From positions 1 through 26,088 of IMG/VR virus record IMGVR_UViG_3300017785_002555: DNA of 26,088 nt. One strand, given 5' to 3'. Each line of letters opens with the position of its first letter. The first letter of the stretch is position 1. The position numbers were made by a program, and so were the translations under genes. Below the pieces are notes generated by a model. It had not been told where the DNA came from, did no database searches, and saw nothing but the letters and a program-made list of their open reading frames with translations. Source of the stretch: a virus. Its lineage: Duplodnaviria; Caudoviricetes. Positions 1,103-24,606 of this stretch are shown here, in pieces.

Positions 1103-2634
1103 CCGTCGATGAATTCGATCCTGAAATTCTGCAGCACCTCACGCCTGAAGAGCTGGCGGAGCTCGATGCTCTGCTGGCTGCAGACAAAACCATTTGGCGA
1201 CCATTACCCGGACCACAATCCATGGCTTACTATTCCGAGGCCGATATCATTGGCTACGGAGGTGCAGCCGGGGGCGGCAAAACAGATCTGGCCTGTGGCA
1301 AAGCGCTCACGAACCATCGCAAAGTAGGCATCTTCCGACTGAATGGCACCGAGTTGACCGGCGTCATCGACCGGTTCACAGACTTGATCGGCTCGCGCAA
1401 TGGCTACAATGGCCAGAACAACATCTGGCGCACCAAGCGTGGCGACGGCGTCGAGATCCAAATCGAGTTCGGATCGTTCCCAAACCTTGGCGATGAGAAG
1501 AAATACCAAGGCCGGCCACATGACCTGCTGGTGTTCGACGAAGCCGCCAACATGCGCGAGATTCAGGTACGCTTCCTGATGGGCTGGCTGCGTACCACGG
1601 ATGTCAACCAGCGCTGTCAAGCCCTGCTAACCTTCAACCCGCCAACGACCGCTGAGGGCCGCTGGATCATCGCCTACTTCGCCCCATGGCTGGACAAGAA
1701 ACACCCGAACCCAGCGGAGCCCGGCGAGCTGCGCTACTTTGCGACCGTCGATGGCAAGGATGTCGAGGTCGAATCCGGTGATGAGTTCGAGCATAACGGC
1801 GAGCTGATCAAGCCCATGTCGCGCACCTTTATTCCGTCGCGGATCAGCGATAACCCTTACCTGATGGGAACCGGATACATGGCCACACTGCAGGCAATGC
1901 CCGAGCCACTGCGCTCACAGATGCTCAACGGCGACTTCAGCGCCGGCATGGAAGATGACCCGTGGCAGGTTATCCCGACCGAGTGGGTCGAGATAGCTCA
2001 GGCCCGGTGGAAGAAGCCGCTCAAGCTGCCGCCAATGGACAGCATGGGCGTCGACGTTGCCCGGGGTGGCAAGGACCAGACCATCATCGCCAGACGCCAT
2101 GGCATGTGGTTTGATGAGCCTCTGGCCTATGCCGGCAGTGCCACGCCTGATGGGCCCACTGTGGCCGGTCTGGTGGTCGCAGCGCTGCGCGACAGGGCTC
2201 CGATACACATTGATGTCATCGGCGTCGGATCGAGCCCCTATGACTTCCTGAACGAATCCAACCAGCAGGTTCTGGGCGTCAACGTGGCCGAGGCTGCACT
2301 GGGTCTAGACAAATCTGGCCGGCTGCGGTTTAAGAACCAGCGGTCCGAGCTGTGGTGGCGCATGCGTGAAGCGCTTGATCCTGCCAACAACACAGGCATA
2401 GCGTTGCCGCCTGATCCACGGCTATTTGCTGACCTGTGCGCGCCGACATGGAAATTGGTTGGCCAAACCATCTCGGTGGCAAGTAGGGAAGAGATACTCG
2501 AGCGCATTGGTAGATCGCCTGACTTTGCGTCGGCGTACTGTTTGGCGCTGATGGACACGCCAAAACGATCAATTGCGATGGAATACGCTCGTCGCAATCA
2601 GAAAGAGGACTATGACCCATATGCAAAACTTTAA
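1099..2634 (+). CDS. terL: Terminase large subunit
   Basis: Walker A YGGAAGGGKT, Walker B LLVFDEA, coupling motif TFNP, RNase H-like nuclease motifs MGVDVARGGKD and RSPDFASA. Confidence 0.95.
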   Translation: MTVDEFDPEILQHLTPEELAELDALLAADKTIWRPLPGPQSMAYYSEADIIGYGGAAGGGKTDLACGKALTNHRKVGIFRLNGTELTGVIDRFTDLIGSRNGYNGQNNIWRTKRGDGVEIQIEFGSFPNLGDEKKYQGRPHDLLVFDEAANMREIQVRFLMGWLRTTDVNQRCQALLTFNPPTTAEGRWIIAYFAPWLDKKHPNPAEPGELRYFATVDGKDVEVESGDEFEHNGELIKPMSRTFIPSRISDNPYLMGTGYMATLQAMPEPLRSQMLNGDFSAGMEDDPWQVIPTEWVEIAQARWKKPLKLPPMDSMGVDVARGGKDQTIIARRHGMWFDEPLAYAGSATPDGPTVAGLVVAALRDRAPIHIDVIGVGSSPYDFLNESNQQVLGVNVAEAALGLDKSGRLRFKNQRSELWWRMREALDPANNTGIALPPDPRLFADLCAPTWKLVGQTISVASREEILERIGRSPDFASAYCLALMDTPKRSIAMEYARRNQKEDYDPYAKL

Positions 2635-2640
2635 ACAACG

Positions 2641-2672
2641 GTGCCCGTATGAAAACGACAAGCCCATAATGT
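2641..2672 (+). promoter_or_regulatory. Repeated junction motif copy 1 (putative late promoter)
   Basis: GTGCCCGTA at 2641-2649, 6 nt after the terL stop. TAATGT at 2667-2672 (17-nt spacer). Confidence 0.65.
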
Positions 2673-3142
2673 CACGGGAAAGTGGGGCACGAACGACTGA
2701 AATTAGGTTGTCTGATGTGTCTGAAATGCAGGCATTAGCATCAGATCTGTTCGCTGATCATTGGGATGAAATAGCGAAAAACAAACATGTGATGGTGTTG
2801 AAACCTGACTGGACAGCATACAAGCTGCTTGAGTCGCAACACAAACTGCTTGTACTTGCTGCGTTTATTGATGGCAGGCTGGTTGGATACAGCGCCAACA
2901 TAGTTAATAGGCATTTGCATTACTTTGACTTGGTCATTTGCAACAACGATATTTTGTTTGTTCACAAGAATTACAGGGCATCTCCAGTTGGCCTGCGGTT
3001 GATACGTGAAACAGAGAAAATGGCAAAAAAGGCTGGGGCTCAAATGATGTTGTGGCATGCAAAACAGCAGACTGCTTTGGACAAAATTATGCCGAAGCTG
3101 AAATATCAAGTTCAAGACATTATTTATGCGAAGGAGATTTGA
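2669..3142 (+). CDS. GNAT-family N-acetyltransferase (start uncertain: 2669 or 2726; track start 2573 overlaps terL)
   Basis: 'DGRLVGY', acetyl-CoA motif A 'ILFVHKNYRASPVGLRLIRETEKMAKKAGAQMMLWHAK'. Confidence 0.82.
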   Translation: MSRESGARTTEIRLSDVSEMQALASDLFADHWDEIAKNKHVMVLKPDWTAYKLLESQHKLLVLAAFIDGRLVGYSANIVNRHLHYFDLVICNNDILFVHKNYRASPVGLRLIRETEKMAKKAGAQMMLWHAKQQTALDKIMPKLKYQVQDIIYAKEI

Positions 3143-13695: not shown

Positions 13696-15599
13696 TGGCA
13701 ACAGTACCCATTTACGATCAACCACAGGTTAACCCTAATGTTGGCCAAATGCAGCCAATGCAGGCGCAAACTGTTGAACCTATTCGCGATTTTACTGGCA
13801 AACAAATAGAGGAAGCTGGCCAAGCTAGGGTTGCATACGCATCCAATTTGATGCGCGTTGCGGAAAAGCAAAAAGAATTTGAAGAGCAATTATTGCTTGA
13901 TAAAAGCGAAATTGATCTTAGGACTTTTATTGTTGACTTTACCAAAGAAAATGAAGGCAGTGTAGGCGAAAAAGCAACCGGCCTTACTGAAAAGTTTTCC
14001 ACATCTTATTACAAGAAAGTATCGGAGTTTGTTACTCAATTCTCTGCTAATGGTGCTGCAGACTCTCGGCTAGTAAAAAGATTTCAAACTAAAGCAAATG
14101 AAATTGGCCTTGCTTCAATTGCAAAATTTTCTACATTTGAGGCCGCGCAAAAACAAGAAGTAAGGGTAAACAATAACAAAGCATTGGGAAAAATTTTAAG
14201 CAATACAGCATCATCTGTTCCATTTTCTTTAAAAGATGGAAAAGTATTTGATGGTCCAGAATTTGAAACAAGCAAAAAACAGCTTATAGAAAATTTAAAA
14301 AAGCGAGCTGAATTGCTTGGATACGGCGAAGATTCTGATGTTTACAAGCAGCTTGTTCAGGAAGAAATGTCATCGGTTTATATGGACCGCGTGGCCAATA
14401 TTATTAACACAAACCCACTTGCTGCACCTGCATATTTTGATCAGGTCAAAGATTTTATTACGAACGATGAGTTTAAAAATAAATTCAAAGGAATGGCAAC
14501 CAAAGTTGCTCAAGAAGCCGAGGCTGAAAAATGGGTTGAATCTAAATTTACTGATGCACTAGCAAGCAAAGACAAAAAATCTATTGCTAATTTGCGTTTA
14601 GATATCATGAAACAGTTTTCTGGTGATCAACAGAAAGTTGCTCTTCAAATATATGAGCAGCTTGAACAAAGCATGATCACGCAAAATGAACAGATTAGAA
14701 AAACTTATTCTAGCCAAGCTTGGGATCAGGTTTTGCAGACAAAAACATCATGGGGCAAAGTTGATAATACAACAAAAGAATGGCTTAGAGACAATGATCC
14801 TGATACTTACAGAAGCATAAACATATTTATTGATAACAATATACAAAACGAAAAAAACGCAATTAAAGCAGAAAGAGCAGAAGAGCGTTCGCAAAGATCT
14901 GAAGAACGAGCAATAAGATCAGAAGAAAGATCTGTAAGAAGTGAAGAAAGAGCTGAAAAAAGAGCTGAAGCACAAGAACAAAGAGAAAAAGATAGAGTTG
15001 AACGCGAAAGAAGGCGAGAAATACGTGAAGCAGCTAAAGCTCGCCAAGATGAAAAAGAAGACATGGCTTTTGGTGAACTAAGCTCAATTATGGGCAATGA
15101 TCAAAAAACATTTATTAATATGGATCTTAATAAATGGCGCACCAGACTTTCTGAATCTGATTGGAAATGGTTTAGTAAACAACAAATTGAACTTAAAAAT
15201 AAACCAGAAACTCAAAAACAAGCAACCACATTATCTAGCAGAATTAGTACTGAAGCAGATATTCTTGGCATTGGAAAAAGTGTAGTAAAGAAAGCAAGAT
15301 TTGAAAAAATTATTTATAACGAGATAGATTCATTTATTACAAATAATAATGGTAAACAACCTGATGCAAAGCAAATAAATTCAATTATTAAGGATGCAAC
15401 GAAAGAATATACAACAGGTGAATTTCTTGGAATTCGTTCTAAATCTCGTCGTTATGAACTTAACCGAGCAAAAACAGTTAATGACATACCAAAAGATCTT
15501 TTAAATGATCTTAAAGCGGATCTTAAGCGGCAAAACTTATCTGTTTCGGACCAAGAAATGGTTAACATTTACAATGTTTATATAGGCCAAAATGACTGA
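13695..15599 (+). CDS. Internal virion (ejection) protein, T7 gp15-position analogue
   Basis: 634 aa helical protein starting 'MATVPIYDQPQV', translationally coupled on both sides. AT-rich and divergent. Confidence 0.7.
   Translation: MATVPIYDQPQVNPNVGQMQPMQAQTVEPIRDFTGKQIEEAGQARVAYASNLMRVAEKQKEFEEQLLLDKSEIDLRTFIVDFTKENEGSVGEKATGLTEKFSTSYYKKVSEFVTQFSANGAADSRLVKRFQTKANEIGLASIAKFSTFEAAQKQEVRVNNNKALGKILSNTASSVPFSLKDGKVFDGPEFETSKKQLIENLKKRAELLGYGEDSDVYKQLVQEEMSSVYMDRVANIINTNPLAAPAYFDQVKDFITNDEFKNKFKGMATKVAQEAEAEKWVESKFTDALASKDKKSIANLRLDIMKQFSGDQQKVALQIYEQLEQSMITQNEQIRKTYSSQAWDQVLQTKTSWGKVDNTTKEWLRDNDPDTYRSINIFIDNNIQNEKNAIKAERAEERSQRSEERAIRSEERSVRSEERAEKRAEAQEQREKDRVERERRREIREAAKARQDEKEDMAFGELSSIMGNDQKTFINMDLNKWRTRLSESDWKWFSKQQIELKNKPETQKQATTLSSRISTEADILGIGKSVVKKARFEKIIYNEIDSFITNNNGKQPDAKQINSIIKDATKEYTTGEFLGIRSKSRRYELNRAKTVNDIPKDLLNDLKADLKRQNLSVSDQEMVNIYNVYIGQND
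14874..14957 (+). repeat. Four degenerate 21-nt tandem repeats encoding the heptad R-[AS]-E-E-R-x-x
   Basis: agagcagaagagcgttcgcaa / agatctgaagaacgagcaata / agatcagaagaaagatctgta / agaagtgaagaaagagctgaa. Confidence 0.8.
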
Positions 15600-18500
15600 T
15601 TTTACTAGCGCGATTAATACAGTATTTGAAGAAAAGCGCCGAAAAACACCAACGATAGATCCAGCAAGATCTACCGTGGGTAAATTTGATTCGGCTATTG
15701 AACAATACAAATCTGATCAAGCGGCAGTAGTAAATTACACAGCACAGCAATCTCCTGCTAATTATGCTGAGTCAATGCGCGTTAGTAAGCAAACTAATAT
15801 TCCGACAGAAGTAGTTAGTAGTGATTTAAATTATTTTAAGTCGCTGACAGACATTAGGCAAAAGCAAGAGTATTTGGCAAAAAATCCTCGCCTTTGGCAA
15901 TTTGTAGAAAGATATCCTGAAAGGTATGGACTTATACAAAATGACCTTGGCAAGATTGATAATGTAGTCAATGGCTCACGGCTTGGCATACAGCTAGAAG
16001 TTGAAAACAAAAAGAAAGTATTTACAAAACGCCCAACAGCGGCAGATTTTCCTGTCAATGCTAACCGTGGTTTTGTAGATGCTGTAAAAGAATTGAAGTC
16101 AGCTCAATTCCAATGGGATGACATTATGAGCCGCGGTGAGGCTCGACCAATGGACCGAACAATTGCTCGTGGAGATTACACACAATTTGCAAAAGATCTA
16201 CTTGCTGGCAAACAGTACGACGTATTTTTGCGTGGCTATCAAGAAGGCAAACAAGCTATTGGCATGGGCCTCGACCGCCTTGATATTTTTAGTGGCGTCA
16301 ATCGCGACATTGCTGCAGCTTGGGAAGCTGAAGGGCTTACATATTCGCCAAATGCTATTCGTGCTGCTCGCATTCAACAGCAGCAAAGAAACGTAGAAAA
16401 ATACCCAATACCTTTGGGGGCTGAAGAAGGGTTGCGCGAAATACAGCAAGCAGATGGTCCCGGTGATGCATTGATGGCCATCATTAAAAATCCATTTGCG
16501 GCAACCTATGCAATTGAAAAATCATTAGGGGCAGTTGCGCCTGGCTTAGCTGTGACTATCGGTTTGTCTACGCTTGGCCCAATTGGCACTGCAACTGGTG
16601 CTGGTTTAACAAGCTTTGCTATTGAGTATGGTTCTACCATACAAGATGTTTTGCAAGAAAATAAAGTCAACATGAATGATGTTGGCTCCCTTAGCCGGGC
16701 TTTAGAAAATAAAGAATTAATGGAAAAGGCTCGAGAAAAAGCAGTTGCTCGAGGAATACCTATTGCTTTGTTTGATGCTGCAACTGCAGGTTTGGCCGGT
16801 AGATTTTTAGCTGCTGCTAACTCAACAAAACGCAGCATGATTACTGCAGTTACTGCAGAAGCCGGTGTCCAAATGGCCGGTGGCGCACTTGGTGAAATTA
16901 CAGCTCAAAAAGTTAGTGGAGAAGAAAAATTAAAGTGGGGCGACATTTGGCTTGAAGCTTTAGGAGAATTGCCAACAGCTGTGCCAGAAGCTTGGAGCAA
17001 TTATGCTGGCTTACGTGCAAAGTATGAGCAAAAGCAGGCAGAGCGTACAGATAATATTGTAAATGCCGCAGTCAATGTTGACATCATGCGCAATGCCATG
17101 AATCAAGTCAAAAGCATGGAGGCTGCAAACCTTGGGCAAGAAGGCAAAGAGGCTATTGCTGAAGTGTTTAATCAAGCAAACCCAGATGCTTCGGTCACAA
17201 TTAACGTAAACCAACTTTTTGATTTAACTACAGAAGAAGAATTTAATATGCTTCTGTCATTAAATCAAGATTACAACGCACAAATAAAAAACGCGGTTAA
17301 TGAACAGACCGATATAGAAATTAAGATGGGTGACTTTCTTGCGGTGTTTTCGCAATCGCAAAGGTCTGAAGAAATTCTTGCAAATATTCGTATGAATGAC
17401 ACAGACATTACTTTGGCTGAGGCTAAAGTAATAGCGCAAGAAGAAGACGCCACATTAAAGCAAGAGCTCGAGAATTTGATTGCTGATCAAGATAAGCGTC
17501 AGTCATTTTATGAAAGTAGGGAAGCGGTCAAGCAGGACATTTTTGCCAAGCTTAATCAAGCGAACAGGTTTACATCGTCTGTAAACGAAGTAAACGCAAC
17601 GCTTGCCGCGGCTCGGTTTGCTACTCGTGCTGCACAACTTAACATGTCTCCGCAGGAGTTTTACCAGCAGCGTGGTCTGAACATTGTGTCGCAGTCGGTT
17701 GCTGATGAGCAGGCATTTATGCAGAGCACTACCACGCCTGAATTTAAGCAATGGTTCGCTGATTCTAAGGTGGTGGATGTCGACGGAGCTCCGTTGAGAT
17801 TGTTCCGTGGTATGGCTGGAGCTGCAATCCCCGAAGAAGGCGTGACTGAAATGAGCCCAACTCCGGGCCTGCTTGGCACTGGCATCTACATGACTGGCTA
17901 TCCACGCCGGGCCGAAGGCTATGCTGAAGGCGAGCGCGGCCAAATTTACCCGCTGTATGCATCAATTCAAAATCCAATCAGCGAAGACGATTTCATCGAG
18001 CGTTTTGGTCGGGAGCAGCGTACACCTGAGCAAAACCAAGCAATTACTGATCAGCTTGTCAGCGAAGGGTATGACGGCATCATCGCTGATCGCGGCCCCG
18101 GCAAAGCATGGGAAGTCGTGGCTTTTCGTCCTGAGCAAGTCAAGTCTGTATTTAACGAGCGCCCAACAGAATCGCCTGAATTGTTCAAACAGACCATCGG
18201 CGGCAAACCCGGGGCAAACAATCCCGGCGCTGGTGTCGAGGATCGCAACCGGCTGGGGTTCTGGCCAGCTCTGCGCGTCAAGGTAACCGGCAAGGTCACG
18301 ATCCCTGAAAAGCCACTGATCCTGACTGGCACTACAAACGTCAATGCGCAGAAGCAGATCGACGCAATCGACGGAATCCTGAAAAAGTTTCCAAAGGCGA
18401 CCGAGTCTGTCGAGCAGTGGTCAAAAATGATGGCCTATGCGCTTGGCTCGGACGAGGTTCCGGTGCCGCCGTATGCGTTTATCAGTGATCTCAATGGCAC

Positions 18501-21500
18501 AGGCTCTGTCGACAAGCTGCGCACCCTGACCCAAGGCCAGATCGATGATGCGACAGCAGGATTTGACAATGCCAAAGAGTTCCGCCGGGCATACACATCT
18601 GGCGAGCTGACAGTTGAAACCACTGGCAAGCTGTTCTTGTGGTCGTTTCTTTCCCGTGGAGTGAGCCCCTACACGCAGGAAGCCCTGTTTATTGACTCGT
18701 TCAATGGTGCCAATGAGTGGATTGCCAAAGCGGCGCGCGGTGAATTTACCGAAGCTGATTTTCCGGCCTATGAAGAGTGGGCCAAGTCAGTTGCCCCCAA
18801 GGGCAGCGGCCAGCCCGGCGCTGGTGCTACACACAACCTAAATGCATTCGGACAGGATTTCCTGTTCAAGATGTCGCAGAAGGGCGCAGACGGTAAGTCG
18901 CACCTGCAGCGGCTACACGACATGATGGCCGACCCAAACCAGACCGGCAAGCAGATCCGCCGGGAGTTTGCGACGTTTGGCGAGGGCGTGGGCATCGACA
19001 ACAAGGTGGTGTCGTTTACCCTGCTGGTGGCCGGTTTCAATGATGTGATGGTGCTGGACCGGGTGCAGATCCGCCAGCTCTGGGATGACGGCAAATTTTC
19101 TGGCGTCAACCTGTATGACGGCGTCACAGAAAAACGGATGGTCACCGGCAAAGACGGCGTTGCCAAAGAGAAAAACGTCAAGATTGCCGGGTCATCGCTA
19201 AACAACCTGACCGAAGGCGCGCGTGGCATTTTGGTCTACGAGGCCATTGAGCGCGGTCTGGAAGCCAAGATCCAGCAGTTTTACACCGAGCTGGGCCGGC
19301 CACAGGACGCCAGCATTGGCCGATATCATTGGGAGACATGGGTCGCAGACAGCCAGCAGGAGGCCGCTCATGGCTCTCTGGGCGCTATTTTGGCCGATGC
19401 CAAGGGTGACGATCAGGCAATTGCCAGCGTTCATGCCAAGCAGGGAGAATATGGTGCATATGAGTACGGAGCCCTGTACAATAGGGACGTAACGTCAACA
19501 CCTTGGTTTGGCTATGAGACTCCAACTGGGAACAATTATGCGTTCTCGGTGCCTGCTTTTCGGGCATTTTTGGAGGACATCAAGCGCCCGGCCACTGGTG
19601 TTGTCCCGACAAAATTTAAAGTGACGGAGAGCGGAAATGCCCCTTGGTACACCAGACCAGAAGTCAACCAACAGCGCCTCGATGAGCGAGCAGCCTACTG
19701 GGCAGACCTTGCCGGCGGAACCGGCGAAGGGCGACTTGCTATTGAGCAAGCTGCTCCGACAGCGCAGCCCGATGGTGCCAGACCCGAGCCCGGAGACGGT
19801 GAATTTTTCCAGTCCGGAGGGGCAGGCATTCAGCGCCTACGAACAAGCGATATCAATGTTGCCGCAAGATACGGTACCCCAAGAGACGGATCCACTTCAG
19901 TCGTTGGCGTCCACTATAGCAGCCTCCCTCGAAACACTCTCTCCGGGCAATTCTACGGAACAGGTTTAAAGGGCGCCGAAGCTGGCCGGCTTGGCCAAAG
20001 CACTGACAACCGGCTATCAAACCGGATTCATTTTTACGTCGATGCCGGCTCAGGTATAGCGCCTGAGGCTGGTGTCGGCGGCAACGTCCACGCAGTCAAC
20101 CTGCAAAATCTCTATAACGTCGAAGAAGACGCTCTTGGCTTGCGCGCGCAGGCATCTGCTGCAGGCAGAGATCCACAAAACTTGTGGTTCAATAACCTAG
20201 AATCTGCTGTCATTGATGCCGGATTTGATGGTATCTACATTCCAACTGCACAAGGTTCACAAGGTGTTGCTGTGCTTTTAGGTCCACAGCACGTTGGTAT
20301 ATCGGTTGATCAGCTTGGCACACACTCTGTGCCTGCTGCCGGTATGTATACACCACCACCGACTGGCAAGCGCCGCATATCGTTGCTGCCAGATGAGATC
20401 CAGACTTTCTATGATCAGGAAGCGCAGATTAAACAAAGCGCTCCAAGTGCATACCTGCGCAATGGCAATCTGATTTTTGATGAAACAGATGCGCAAGGCG
20501 TCATTGACTTTTTCCCTGAAGCAGTCAACGCAAAAGTGTTGATGCAGAATGCTCGAGGCACTTTTAATCCGCGTACAAATACCATCACATTGATGAATGA
20601 TGCGAACCTATCTACGTTCGCACACGAGCTTGCACACTTTTTCTTTGAGGATGACATCCTATTGGCATCCGAGTTAATGGGCAAAGAGAACATCACTATT
20701 GGTGAGCAACAAATTATTAATGATGTCAGCAAGTTGATGTCGTGGCACGGAATTCAAGGAAATGCTGTTGAACAAATTCAGCAATATTTCAACATGAGTT
20801 TTGAAGAAAAACGTGCATATCACGAGCGTACTGCTGAGTCATTTGAGCGTTACATGTTCAGCGGCAAAGCGCCGAGCATTGAATTGCAGCCTTACTTCCA
20901 ACGGTTCCGCGCTTGGATGATTAGCGTTTACAACTCAATTAAAGAATTTCTAATTAAAAATCCAGAAGCAGGAAAACTTAATGCCGAGGTTAGAGAAGTA
21001 TTTGACCGTATGTTGGCGACCAATGATCAGATAGAGCTGGCCCAACAAAACCGTTCAATGTTGCCGCTATTTGAATCTGCGCAAGATGCTGGAATGACTA
21101 CCGAAGAGTTTGCTCGGTATCAGCAAGAAAATGCTGAAGCTGGCGCATCTGCTATGGATGACCTGACATCAAAGACATTGTCAGACATGAAGTGGATGGA
21201 AAACGCCAAGGCTCGAGAACTTCGTCGACTGCAAAAGGAAGCCGCTGGCCTACGAGCAGAAATGAAGATTGAGGCTCGTCGCCAGATTTTGTCGCAGCCT
21301 GTGTATCAAGCTTGGCAGTTCTTGACTGGAAAAGCAGCGCAGCCATCTGTTGACCTGACTGAATATCAACTCGAAGTGGCCGAATGGGAGCGCAAGAAAT
21401 CTGAAGCTCTTGAGGAAGTACGCATTGAGGTCCGCACAAAGCTGTGGTCTGAGTCGCCTGAGTCAAAGAAAACTTATGAAACTACACAAAAAGCAGGTCT

Positions 21501-24500
21501 TGCAAAAGGCCAGTTTTTGTCTAAGCACCGCAAAGATATTGAGCTCGAGGTAAGCAAATTTGCTTTGGAGTATGACCGCAATAATCCAAAGCCCAAAAAA
21601 CCAGAAGTTCCAACAACCATCGAAGAGATGGGTGAGGTTGTATACGGCAAGCTTAATACTGCAGCCGTTGCAGAGCTCGGCATTCCAGAAGAAATTACTG
21701 GGTTCTTGAAGACACTGCGCATGGTGGCCACAGATGGTCTGGACCCAGACATGCTGGCTACGCAGTTTGGTTTTTCATCAGGCGATGAGCTTGTCAGATC
21801 TTTGGCTGCTGCAGAAAAGCCTGAGATAGCGATTAATAATTTGACAGATAAATTGATGCTTGAGCAATATGGTGAGTTTTCAACACCAGAGGCTTTGGAG
21901 ATGGCAGCTGACATGGCCATTCACAATGAAGCTCGCGCTCGATTTATTGCGACAGAAATGGCCGCTATTGCAAAGGCAGCAGGCAAACCTCGCATGCTGG
22001 CTAATTCTGCAAAAACTTATGCGCGTGTAATTATTGACCGCATGAAAATCATTGACATTCGTCCAGTCAAATATGCATCAGCAGAAGCTCGTTCTGCTAA
22101 AGCTGCAGAAAAAGCAATGATGGCTGGCAAAACTCAAGAGGTATACGCAGAAAAGCGCAATCAGATGCTGAACAATCAAACAGCAAAAGCTGCATATGAA
22201 GCGCTTGATGAAGTTCAAAAAGGCGTCAGATATCTAAAGAAATTTGACAGCGAAGGTGTACGCAAAGCTATCGATATTGACTATCAGGATCAGATTGATA
22301 CCTTTCTCGAGCGATTTAATCTGAGCTCTGGCCAAAGCCGTCGTAGCATTGAAAAGCGCAAGCAACTGGCTCAATGGCTTGATTCTCAGGAAGAGATGGG
22401 CATTGAAGTCGACATATCACCAAAGCTTAAAAATGAAGCGCTGCGCCAATCTTACAAAGAACTGACAGTTGAAGAGTTCCGTGGACTTGTTGACACCATC
22501 AAACAAATCGAACATTTGGGCCGGCTAAAGCAACGCTTACTGACACAGGCGGAAGACCGCAGGTTTGCTGACATCATTACCGAGATGGTGACTGGTGTTG
22601 AGGTCAATGGCGCAAACAAGAAAGCAGTCAATCGCACCCGCGATACATTGCCAAGTCGAATTACGGCGCTGTTTAAAGGTTACACAGCAAGCCATCGCAA
22701 AGTTGCCAGCTTGGCTCGCGAGCTTGATGGATTTAAAGACGGTGGACCGGTATGGAATTACCTGATCCGTACCATGAACGACGCCGGCAATCGTGAAGCA
22801 ACTATGCGAGCTCAGGCAACTAAGCGCATGGCCGAGTTGATCAAGCCGATTATGAAGCTAGGCAAGATGGGTGGCAACGGTAAGTTTTTCCCAACATTAG
22901 GTCAAAGTTTGAACCGCGGCGAACGGATTGTCATGGTCCTAAACATGGGCAATGCCGGCAATATGCAGCGCTTGCTTGATGGCTATGGTTGGACTATGGA
23001 GCAGGTGCAGCCAGTCATTGATAGCCTAAGCGAAGAAGAGCTTAAATTCGTACAGGATATCTGGGATTTCTTCGAAAGCTATCGGCCAATGATTGCAGAG
23101 AAAGAACGCCGGGTCATGGGCAAAGAGCCAAACTGGGTCGACCCGGTTCCGCTTGATACCAAGTTTGGCCGGCTGCGAGGCGGCTATTTCCCGATTGTCT
23201 ACGATCCGAAGATGTCGGGCCGGGCTGAACAGCAGTCGGATGCTGAGGCAGCAAAGCAGCAATTGCGTGGTGCCTTTGTGGCCGCGACAACCCGCCGCAG
23301 CTTTGTCAAATCGCGCGCTGAGGCCGTGATGGATCGTCCGGTACTGTTGACATGGGATGGCTTATTCCGTGGCGTCAATGAGGTAATACATGATTTGACA
23401 TGGCACGAGTGGGTGATCGACGCCAACCGCATCGTCAAGAATGGCGAATTTGATGATGCAGTGCGTAGTCGGTATGGCGCTGAAGTGGTCCAGCAATTTA
23501 AGGCAGCGATCCGAGACATTGCGGCAGGTGAGTCAGCAGCATTGCAGCCAATTGAAAAAGGGCTCAACTATCTACGTGCAGGCTCGGCCATCGCCGGTCT
23601 TGGCTTCAATATCATGAATGCTTTCCTGCAGCCGCTGGGTCTGACGCAATCGATGGTTCGTATTGGACCCAAATGGGTAGCCATGGGCGTTGGCAAATGG
23701 GCCACATCTCCGGTCGGCATGGTTAAAGAAGTCTGGTCCAAATCAGAATTTATGATGAACCGGCACATGACCCAGCAACGTGAGGTCAACGAGATTCAAT
23801 CGGTAGTACAAGGCAAAAGTACTATTCGCCAGAAAATAGACACGCTGATGTTTGTGCCAATGATCAGCTTGCAGCTGATCGCAGATATGCCGACATGGTG
23901 GGGCGCTTATCAAAAAGCGCTGGCTGATGTAAATGTCGACATGACCGAAGAAGCTATTGAAAGCCGGGCGATTGCTCTAGCTGATCAGGCTGTGCTTGAT
24001 TCTCAATCTGGTGGCCAGATCAAAGATCTTGCGCAGGTGCAGCGTGGCGGAGCGGCATTAAAGCTGTTTACCGTGTTTTATGGATACTTCTCAGCTTCCT
24101 ACAATCTGGGCGTCGAGCGCGCAAAAGCTACAAACTTCCGCAACCCGCTCGATATTATGCACCTTGGCTGGGATTTCCTGATGCTGTATTCGGTGCCTGC
24201 TGTTCTTGGCATGATGCTTAAAGAAGCTTTGCAGCCCGGTGATGAAGATGATGAAGAAGAGCTGGCAACTAAGCTTGCTGGTGAGCAAATCAGCTACATG
24301 ATGAACATGATGGTCGGCCTGAGAGAAGCTGTGGGAGCAGTTCAGTACATGACAGGCACCAAACAATTTGATGCGTCATACGGTGGCCCGGCTGGCCTGC
24401 GGTTCTTCCAAGAGCTGGACAAGCTTGGCAAGCAAATTGGTCAGGGCGAACTTGACCGGGCTTTGCTGAGGTCCACGGTCAACGTAATGGGTATAACCCT

Positions 24501-24606
24501 GCATCTGCCATCAGCTCAAGCAAACCGGACAATTGACGGCGTCATGGCATTGAGCGAAGGCGAGACTGAAAATCCAATGGCCATCCTGATGGGATTCAAG
24601 AAATAG
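15592..24606 (+). CDS. Giant internal virion/ejection protein of the large polyvalent protein type (ART, HhH-GPD glycosylase-like, ART-like and zincin domains)
   Basis: 3004-aa ORF in the T7 gp16 position. Hydrophobic Gly/Ala segments near aa 310-470. ART-PolyVal-like 'EFKQWFADSKVVD..G.PL.LFRG...GYDGII...EVVAFRPEQVKS'. HhH motif with K1138/D1156. HELAH at aa 1678-1682. Long helical C-terminal half. Confidence 0.88.
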   Translation: MTDFTSAINTVFEEKRRKTPTIDPARSTVGKFDSAIEQYKSDQAAVVNYTAQQSPANYAESMRVSKQTNIPTEVVSSDLNYFKSLTDIRQKQEYLAKNPRLWQFVERYPERYGLIQNDLGKIDNVVNGSRLGIQLEVENKKKVFTKRPTAADFPVNANRGFVDAVKELKSAQFQWDDIMSRGEARPMDRTIARGDYTQFAKDLLAGKQYDVFLRGYQEGKQAIGMGLDRLDIFSGVNRDIAAAWEAEGLTYSPNAIRAARIQQQQRNVEKYPIPLGAEEGLREIQQADGPGDALMAIIKNPFAATYAIEKSLGAVAPGLAVTIGLSTLGPIGTATGAGLTSFAIEYGSTIQDVLQENKVNMNDVGSLSRALENKELMEKAREKAVARGIPIALFDAATAGLAGRFLAAANSTKRSMITAVTAEAGVQMAGGALGEITAQKVSGEEKLKWGDIWLEALGELPTAVPEAWSNYAGLRAKYEQKQAERTDNIVNAAVNVDIMRNAMNQVKSMEAANLGQEGKEAIAEVFNQANPDASVTINVNQLFDLTTEEEFNMLLSLNQDYNAQIKNAVNEQTDIEIKMGDFLAVFSQSQRSEEILANIRMNDTDITLAEAKVIAQEEDATLKQELENLIADQDKRQSFYESREAVKQDIFAKLNQANRFTSSVNEVNATLAAARFATRAAQLNMSPQEFYQQRGLNIVSQSVADEQAFMQSTTTPEFKQWFADSKVVDVDGAPLRLFRGMAGAAIPEEGVTEMSPTPGLLGTGIYMTGYPRRAEGYAEGERGQIYPLYASIQNPISEDDFIERFGREQRTPEQNQAITDQLVSEGYDGIIADRGPGKAWEVVAFRPEQVKSVFNERPTESPELFKQTIGGKPGANNPGAGVEDRNRLGFWPALRVKVTGKVTIPEKPLILTGTTNVNAQKQIDAIDGILKKFPKATESVEQWSKMMAYALGSDEVPVPPYAFISDLNGTGSVDKLRTLTQGQIDDATAGFDNAKEFRRAYTSGELTVETTGKLFLWSFLSRGVSPYTQEALFIDSFNGANEWIAKAARGEFTEADFPAYEEWAKSVAPKGSGQPGAGATHNLNAFGQDFLFKMSQKGADGKSHLQRLHDMMADPNQTGKQIRREFATFGEGVGIDNKVVSFTLLVAGFNDVMVLDRVQIRQLWDDGKFSGVNLYDGVTEKRMVTGKDGVAKEKNVKIAGSSLNNLTEGARGILVYEAIERGLEAKIQQFYTELGRPQDASIGRYHWETWVADSQQEAAHGSLGAILADAKGDDQAIASVHAKQGEYGAYEYGALYNRDVTSTPWFGYETPTGNNYAFSVPAFRAFLEDIKRPATGVVPTKFKVTESGNAPWYTRPEVNQQRLDERAAYWADLAGGTGEGRLAIEQAAPTAQPDGARPEPGDGEFFQSGGAGIQRLRTSDINVAARYGTPRDGSTSVVGVHYSSLPRNTLSGQFYGTGLKGAEAGRLGQSTDNRLSNRIHFYVDAGSGIAPEAGVGGNVHAVNLQNLYNVEEDALGLRAQASAAGRDPQNLWFNNLESAVIDAGFDGIYIPTAQGSQGVAVLLGPQHVGISVDQLGTHSVPAAGMYTPPPTGKRRISLLPDEIQTFYDQEAQIKQSAPSAYLRNGNLIFDETDAQGVIDFFPEAVNAKVLMQNARGTFNPRTNTITLMNDANLSTFAHELAHFFFEDDILLASELMGKENITIGEQQIINDVSKLMSWHGIQGNAVEQIQQYFNMSFEEKRAYHERTAESFERYMFSGKAPSIELQPYFQRFRAWMISVYNSIKEFLIKNPEAGKLNAEVREVFDRMLATNDQIELAQQNRSMLPLFESAQDAGMTTEEFARYQQENAEAGASAMDDLTSKTLSDMKWMENAKARELRRLQKEAAGLRAEMKIEARRQILSQPVYQAWQFLTGKAAQPSVDLTEYQLEVAEWERKKSEALEEVRIEVRTKLWSESPESKKTYETTQKAGLAKGQFLSKHRKDIELEVSKFALEYDRNNPKPKKPEVPTTIEEMGEVVYGKLNTAAVAELGIPEEITGFLKTLRMVATDGLDPDMLATQFGFSSGDELVRSLAAAEKPEIAINNLTDKLMLEQYGEFSTPEALEMAADMAIHNEARARFIATEMAAIAKAAGKPRMLANSAKTYARVIIDRMKIIDIRPVKYASAEARSAKAAEKAMMAGKTQEVYAEKRNQMLNNQTAKAAYEALDEVQKGVRYLKKFDSEGVRKAIDIDYQDQIDTFLERFNLSSGQSRRSIEKRKQLAQWLDSQEEMGIEVDISPKLKNEALRQSYKELTVEEFRGLVDTIKQIEHLGRLKQRLLTQAEDRRFADIITEMVTGVEVNGANKKAVNRTRDTLPSRITALFKGYTASHRKVASLARELDGFKDGGPVWNYLIRTMNDAGNREATMRAQATKRMAELIKPIMKLGKMGGNGKFFPTLGQSLNRGERIVMVLNMGNAGNMQRLLDGYGWTMEQVQPVIDSLSEEELKFVQDIWDFFESYRPMIAEKERRVMGKEPNWVDPVPLDTKFGRLRGGYFPIVYDPKMSGRAEQQSDAEAAKQQLRGAFVAATTRRSFVKSRAEAVMDRPVLLTWDGLFRGVNEVIHDLTWHEWVIDANRIVKNGEFDDAVRSRYGAEVVQQFKAAIRDIAAGESAALQPIEKGLNYLRAGSAIAGLGFNIMNAFLQPLGLTQSMVRIGPKWVAMGVGKWATSPVGMVKEVWSKSEFMMNRHMTQQREVNEIQSVVQGKSTIRQKIDTLMFVPMISLQLIADMPTWWGAYQKALADVNVDMTEEAIESRAIALADQAVLDSQSGGQIKDLAQVQRGGAALKLFTVFYGYFSASYNLGVERAKATNFRNPLDIMHLGWDFLMLYSVPAVLGMMLKEALQPGDEDDEEELATKLAGEQISYMMNMMVGLREAVGAVQYMTGTKQFDASYGGPAGLRFFQELDKLGKQIGQGELDRALLRSTVNVMGITLHLPSAQANRTIDGVMALSEGETENPMAILMGFKK

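Follow-up and report, generated by a model that had tools for sequence, protein, structure and literature searches.

The window analysed here, that is, the whole 26,088-nucleotide stretch of the virus record IMGVR_UViG_3300017785_002555 (Caudoviricetes), encodes a protein of 3004 amino acids (aa) in which a block of about 500 residues is, judging from its predicted structure, very probably a bifunctional DNA glycosylase/apurinic-apyrimidinic (AP) lyase. In this study I propose that this domain is injected into the host and would act on non-self DNA, for instance the modified genome of a rival phage, by excising a non-canonical purine, a reading to which I assign a probability of roughly 0.36; the placing of the target in rival DNA is, taken by itself, possible rather than probable.

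An initial annotation, made from the letters only, had described a HhH-GPD glycosylase/AP-lyase-like domain in this protein. The motifs on which it relied, K1138 (19003) and D1156 (19057) with their spacing of 18 residues, YEAIERGL and YHWETW, are all present in the open reading frame (ORF) at 15592-24606. The span it assigned, 18193..19812, does contain the conserved block, which is slightly narrower (aa 884-1383). The parts of the domain are as follows.

18241..19740, plus strand: mobile cargo domain, aa 884-1383, a conserved block of about 500 residues
18241..18480, plus strand: N-terminal extension, aa 884-963, beyond the Ogg2 match
18481..19371, plus strand: HhH-GPD core, aa 964-1260, superposing on 207 of the 209 residues of Thermotoga Ogg2 (Z 14.7, root-mean-square deviation (rmsd) 3.0)
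19003..19005, plus strand: K1138, predicted catalytic Lys, codon AAG, in register with the Lys of MjOgg2
19057..19059, plus strand: D1156, predicted catalytic Asp, codon GAC, 18 residues after K1138
19327..19341, plus strand: H1246-x3-W1250, invariant, the likely base-edge reader and stacking Trp, with a register derived from alignment end points and the numbering in the accessible text of PMC3397491
19369..19371, plus strand: H1260, invariant, in line with the last Ogg2 residue (the sensor Lys position)
19372..19740, plus strand: conserved C-terminal extension, aa 1261-1383, a beta-sheet plus helices

K1138 and D1156 are invariant in all 79 aligned relatives (35-93% identity), and so are R1157, E1217, E1220, H1246, W1247, W1250 and H1260, while Y1216 is a Tyr in 61 of them. 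Synonymous codon changes greatly exceed non-synonymous ones between the window domain and three relatives (135:41, 121:36 and 91:10).

The model of the domain (predicted local distance difference test 94.7, predicted template modelling score 0.92) has the two-domain HhH-GPD fold, and in a fold search over 48,161 chains all of the top 22 rows are HhH-GPD relatives. The best match is the Ogg2 of Thermotoga (Tm1821, 3n0u), aligned to model residues 81-377, and further Z scores are 10.3 for hOGG1, 9.2 for EndoIII, 9.2 for Qng1 (248 residues aligned), 8.6 for ROS1 and 5.9 for AGOG; the HhH-GPD/Ogg2-like fold read by the initial annotation is supported. The five best Foldseek matches are all Ogg2 (E 0.026-0.072), and the sequence profile matches MjOgg2 weakly (E 0.023) with the Lys and the Asp in register. 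The superposition implies that K1138 and D1156 would face one pocket, and the top fold rows together with the alignment of the pair to MjOgg2 support an Ogg2-like assignment. The Pfam family PF22175 (Ogg-HhH) is not above cut-off in the window and appears weakly in 5 of the 79 family members (best E 0.0028), none of which exceeds a Pfam cut-off; a single-sequence search of the PDB gave no result, and a BFVD search gave two uncharacterised relatives as its sole matches.

The same fold search bears on a different chemistry, in which the domain would be a base-modifying transferase of the AADT/aGPT-Pplase type, a nucleotide or RNA base hydrolase like Qng1, or a DNA-binding decoy. The long Qng1 alignment and the presence of the transferase gp46/PUGT (Z 4.4, rmsd 5.0, 201 aligned) leave room for such functions, as do about 200 extra conserved residues in the domain. 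However, Ogg2 is clearly ahead, the exact Lys/Asp spacing is retained, and no gene of a hydroxymethyluracil (hmU) or other modification pathway was found among the 150 representatives of the gene scan described below, and I regard these options as improbable.

The base pocket departs from that of Ogg2. According to the accessible text of PMC3397491, Ogg2 ends in a Lys whose carboxylate separates 8-oxoguanine (8-oxoG) from G, and the reader and stacking residues are Asp194 and Trp198 in Ogg2, Gln315 and Phe319 in OGG1, and Asp218 and Trp222 in AGOG. A C-terminal Lys was present in 100 of the 103 Ogg2-like proteins fetched. In the phage domain about 120 further conserved residues follow and H1260 is found at the Ogg2 terminus, and short carrier proteins likewise lack a terminal Lys. 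The end points of the superpositions with hOGG1 (325), CacOgg (288) and PaAGOG (228) all fall on model residue 373, and for this reason, if the last helix is ungapped, W1250 would be the stacking aromatic and the invariant H1246 would take the place of the Gln/Asp reader; the guanine-reading position thus likely holds an invariant His. The Asp that Ogg2 has four residues before its stacking Trp is a His or a Gly here, depending on the register, and an Asp in neither. In addition, the His of the Ogg2 KEASH motif is replaced by Phe in 78 of 79 relatives and the His of its DRH motif by Val or Ile in all 79. As the sensor features are lost and the reader is changed, the domain seems to work like Ogg2 without being one, and the base is probably different: a substrate other than plain 8-oxoG is rather more probable than 8-oxoG itself.

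The repair of oxidised incoming DNA, one of the roles offered by the initial annotation, is weakened by the same loss of the sensor Lys. A diverged Ogg2 that repairs oxidised purines (8-oxoG, formamidopyrimidine guanine (FapyG)) gathered in the virion would agree with the nearest structures, which are 8-oxoG glycosylases, and His1260, standing where the sensor Lys ends, might substitute for it. It would have to act without the C-terminal carboxylate and, in all likelihood, without the Asp/Gln reader, and the patchy swapping of the domain is unlike housekeeping. Hosts usually have Fpg and Nth of their own. I therefore hold this role to be unlikely.

Among the ejection-region proteins of podophages the domain behaves as a mobile cargo. 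The aa 884-1383 block was found at 80 viral loci (47-98% identity), in 117 proteins and in 449 clusters at 50% identity (E<=0.001). It was not found in any of 50,697 GenBank records of cultured phages, and among the GTDB genomes it was found on just six metagenome-assembled contigs. The carrier proteins range from about 700 to 3,700 aa on several scaffolds, and in the short forms inspected the domain still lies among ejection-region genes, while the carriers differ in portals, capsids and replication modules, and some have integrases. When 50 records were searched whole, the domain was recovered in all 28 picked as carriers and in none of 22 scaffold relatives. On a quick domain tree the window-type scaffold label takes five changes, at least two of them forced by strong branches. 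The GC content at third codon positions is raised over the cargo, 53-78% at codons 801-1400 vs 25-45% at codons 1-700. A scaffold search started from locus L073 found only L073 itself, and searches for Ogg2 in 5 and in 151 genomes gave no result. Two BPP-1-like relatives (G029, G030) encode a reverse transcriptase (L206:3382-4995) and also an Mtd-like gene, and the L206 reverse transcriptase is likely part of a diversity-generating retroelement.

Sister phages fill the same position with other families. With the tail protein of L083 as bait, 410 relatives were obtained, of which 80 were kept, giving 75 new loci; among the 32 long enough to score, which include several near-duplicates, the slot after the gp15-like gene holds the window family in 8 and one of four other families in 9. 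These four have a Lys and an Asp 18-21 residues apart and a later Q-x3-W, and two of them match DUF7178 (PF23802). The candidate site in L302 is QSITW (the first match of the script was another site), and the cargo of L275 has a similar K..D..Q-x3-W motif by eye. Among 29 distinct non-carriers that share the window's scaffold, 7 have one of these other families.

Other K..D..Q-x3-W cargo in the same slot or scaffold, four or five families, DUF7178 included: L260, L283, L288, L302, L306, L310, L312, L325, L275 (cargo slot); L114, L119, L123, L127, L130, L142, L146

K183 and D202 show no variation across 44 rows of the L288 family, Q331 and W335 hardly any, and the model of this family is mostly helical (predicted local distance difference test 93.5). 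Profiles of the sister families show no significant link to the window family or to Ogg2, though K/D or Q-x3-W fall in register, and as a lead from these motifs the sister families may be glycosylases. One could go further and suppose that aquatic podophages draw on a changing set of HhH-GPD glycosylase families, five or more in number (the window family, DUF7178 and another three or four without names), that are delivered with the virion; each family would be adapted to its own modified base, and they would serve to destroy the modified DNA of rival phages, as a phage-side counterpart of the Dag/Brig defence; I consider this extension speculative and on balance doubtful. In genome G025 the window family lies at one contig end (L198 1-1066, minus strand) and the L288 family at the other (L200 1422-5594, minus strand), and the two end ORFs, both open, are possibly one protein with two such domains. 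At L265:14351-16891 and L309:5495-7342 the slot is occupied by another unannotated cargo of about 600 aa with no K..D motif by eye.

The expected delivery of the domain follows from its setting. The IMG/VR record is a virus contig, 63% complete and of the same extent as the window, and the window corresponds to a podophage virion operon in which genes of BPP-1 type occur (GP7 capsid, Bbp16); it comprises terminases, portal, protease, capsid, tail proteins, two internal-virion-type genes, the 3004-aa ORF and the tail fibre. A GNAT acetyltransferase gene lies between terminase and portal (2573-3142). The 3004-aa protein carries LPD22, ART-PolyVal (Pfam E 6e-15) and a weak Tox-MPTase4, its scaffold being phrog_9880, and as a large multidomain protein with LPD and ART domains encoded in a virion operon it has the character of polyvalent cargo. 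Phage polyvalent proteins of such a layout are predicted to be injected, according to the accessible part of Iyer et al. 2017 (PMC5512222), and the gene position makes packaging and injection of the 3004-aa protein likely. Its further features are these.

15592..24606, plus strand: 3004-aa polyvalent protein, final gene of the internal-virion cluster, directly before the tail fibre
17776..18168, plus strand: ART-PolyVal domain, aa 729-859, independent cargo, Pfam E 6e-15
19879..20316, plus strand: second ART-like block, about aa 1430-1575, by eye and local profile, no Pfam match
20533..21021, plus strand: zincin-like scaffold segment with HELAH, which may be a processing peptidase, Tox-MPTase4 E 0.044, under cut-off

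The initial annotation had placed the domain between two ART-like domains and raised the option of coupled marking and excision. The upstream neighbour is confirmed by Pfam; the downstream one is discernible by eye and has no Pfam match. A neighbouring ART that marks DNA for the domain to excise would suit the two flanking blocks in the window, and an ART adjoins the domain in several relatives as well. However, local profiles, though liable to overlook diverged ARTs, detected an ART in just 11 of the 62 distinct complete carriers, and a Pfam scan did so in 7 of 23 carriers; within the window-type scaffold an ART is present in 8 of 16 carriers vs 10 of 29 non-carriers (p 0.35), and the L002 protein, 88% identical overall, lacks the upstream ART. 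With no enrichment among carriers the coupling was rejected, and I regard it as most improbable. In the window ART-PolyVal (17776-18168) an Arg (LRLFRG) seems to replace the first-strand His expected from the H-Y-D signature in the accessible part of Iyer et al. 2017 (PMC5512222).

In a comparison of 21 carrier with 16 non-carrier genomes, none of the gene families follows the domain, and the carrier-only ones reach at most 7 of 21. The scan for partners covered 150 of the 155 shared-family representatives (at least 110 aa) and set aside 369 single-genome ORFs, 201 of them in carriers; among the 150 representatives no base-modification pathway, for hmU or otherwise, is annotated. A C5 methylase family is found in 6 of 21 carriers and 4 of 16 non-carriers. 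The integrase families include five carriers, an observation in keeping with a target outside the host chromosome.

This last point is relevant for the possibility that the domain excises host-methylated bases (Dcm CCWGG, CcrM GANTC) and thereby damages the host chromosome, the phage itself avoiding those sites. GANTC ranks first among 408 gapped motifs (p 3.7e-5), with a median observed/expected ratio of 0.41 in the 21 carriers vs 0.96 in the 16 non-carriers, a control set skewed to the window's lineage. CCWGG occurs once in the window against 43 expected, which likely reflects avoidance of EcoRII/Dcm sites, and is near-absent in L001-L004 too. However, sister loci in which none of the five families was detected (L265, L297, L305, L308 and L315, for example) are equally depleted, L005-L007, with 80-85% identical domains, show no depletion, and some carriers appear temperate; excision of host-methylated bases is thus very improbable. 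Self-protection by motif avoidance was rejected on the same two grounds, and the depletion, which clusters on the quick domain tree, is better seen as a lineage or host signal, because it is shared by domain-free sisters and absent in close domain relatives. GANTC is depleted in about half of the pelagiphages, as far as the accessible text of PMC9516812 states. It is almost wholly avoided in G013, G014, G020, G021, G022, G026 and the L083 lineage (47-62% GC), and such near-total avoidance would point to alphaproteobacterial hosts.

In the function that I favour, the excision of a non-canonical purine from non-self DNA, the domain would be delivered into the host with the phage genome at infection and possibly be released by the zincin-like segment of the scaffold. 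A non-canonical purine would be flipped into the His/Trp pocket, which His1246 and His1260 may retune away from 8-oxoG; Lys1138, assisted by Asp1156, would attack C1', the base would be excised and the strand nicked by beta-elimination. Self DNA would be spared because the carriers appear to make unmodified DNA. A precedent is Dag1 (K118, D184-x3-W188), a HhH glycosylase that, in the available part of bioRxiv 10.1101/2025.10.29.685425, degrades 7-deazaguanine phage DNA. Turnover in one slot or cassette is typical of conflict, and together with the Dag1 precedent and with carriers that appear unmodified and in some cases temperate it favours the modified DNA of rivals as target.

Alternatively, the injected glycosylase may remove from the incoming phage genome base adducts or lesions that host defence enzymes have introduced, host base-excision repair then filling the gap. 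An enzyme that enters together with the genome is ideally placed to act on it, the succession of families in one slot could equally well stem from an arms race between host and phage, and Getz et al. speculate about countermeasures packaged in the virion. However, a Lys/Asp lyase would nick the very genome under its protection, and the analyses indicate no specific defence adduct; I take this alternative to be rather unlikely, but not negligible.

Several observations weigh against an enzyme directed at the modified DNA of rivals. On the side of the fold, Foldseek of the domain model against the PDB gives zero matches at E<=0.001, the Pfam scan of the window protein has no match over the domain, and the Atlas match (0.91) is weak by the Atlas's own measure (recognition 2000). 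On the side of the pocket, hhalign puts the Ogg2 Trp on W1247 instead (probability 7.5), which affects the register assumed for H1246, and a His at the reader position could still read the guanine edge. The profile links of the sister families to the window family are insignificant (probability 0.1-0.9), a modification gene could be missed among the 201 single-genome genes of carriers outside the scan, and the few injected copies would reach rival DNA only under co-infection or with a resident element.

Literature searches found no prior description of the domain, and the filling of the same slot in sister phages by other K..D..Q-x3-W families, DUF7178 among them, is new here. Glycosylases have only recently come to be seen as weapons of bacteria against phages, and a set that is carried by phages and probably injected would be a new effector class of polyvalent proteins, would suggest a function for DUF7178 and could be a source of enzymes with novel base specificities. 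With its 449 clusters the family is large, and it is testable as a single soluble domain.

Phage-encoded enzymes that act on DNA bases, as proposed for the domain, include T4 DenV and the AADT enzyme gp46/PUGT; however, DenV repairs dimers and has a different fold, and gp46 matches at just Z 4.4. DUF7178 occupies the same slot in sister phages and shows a motif of the same kind, and no other named family comes closer in the Atlas (0.88), but it has a Gln where the window family has the His, with no significant profile link. Dag1 and Dag2, as described in the available part of bioRxiv 10.1101/2025.10.29.685425, have the HhH fold, the catalytic Lys and D/H-x3-W in common with the domain, and the conflict role is assigned by analogy with them; they are stand-alone bacterial defence genes with Asp184, whereas the domain is phage cargo with a His. 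As to the polyvalent proteins, no LPD model matches the aa 884-1383 block in the Pfam scan, and the main text of Iyer et al. 2017 (PMC5512222) does not use the word 'glycosylase', while its supplements could list the block as an unnamed domain; LPD22, ART-PolyVal, the zincin-like segment, swappable cargo and predicted injection are common to these proteins and the window protein. The closest known enzymes are Ogg2 (Tm1821 3n0u, MjOgg 3fhf/3knt; PF22175). Unlike Ogg2, the domain has no C-terminal Lys, a His at the likely Asp reader and two Ogg2 His positions lost, and it is about 500 rather than 207 aa long, 16% identical and embedded in a phage polyprotein; yet its predicted fold spans the whole Ogg2 chain, and it shares the Lys/Asp pair 18 residues apart, G-x-x-D-V-x-x-[IL]-D-R, Y-x-x-I-E and the likely stacking Trp.

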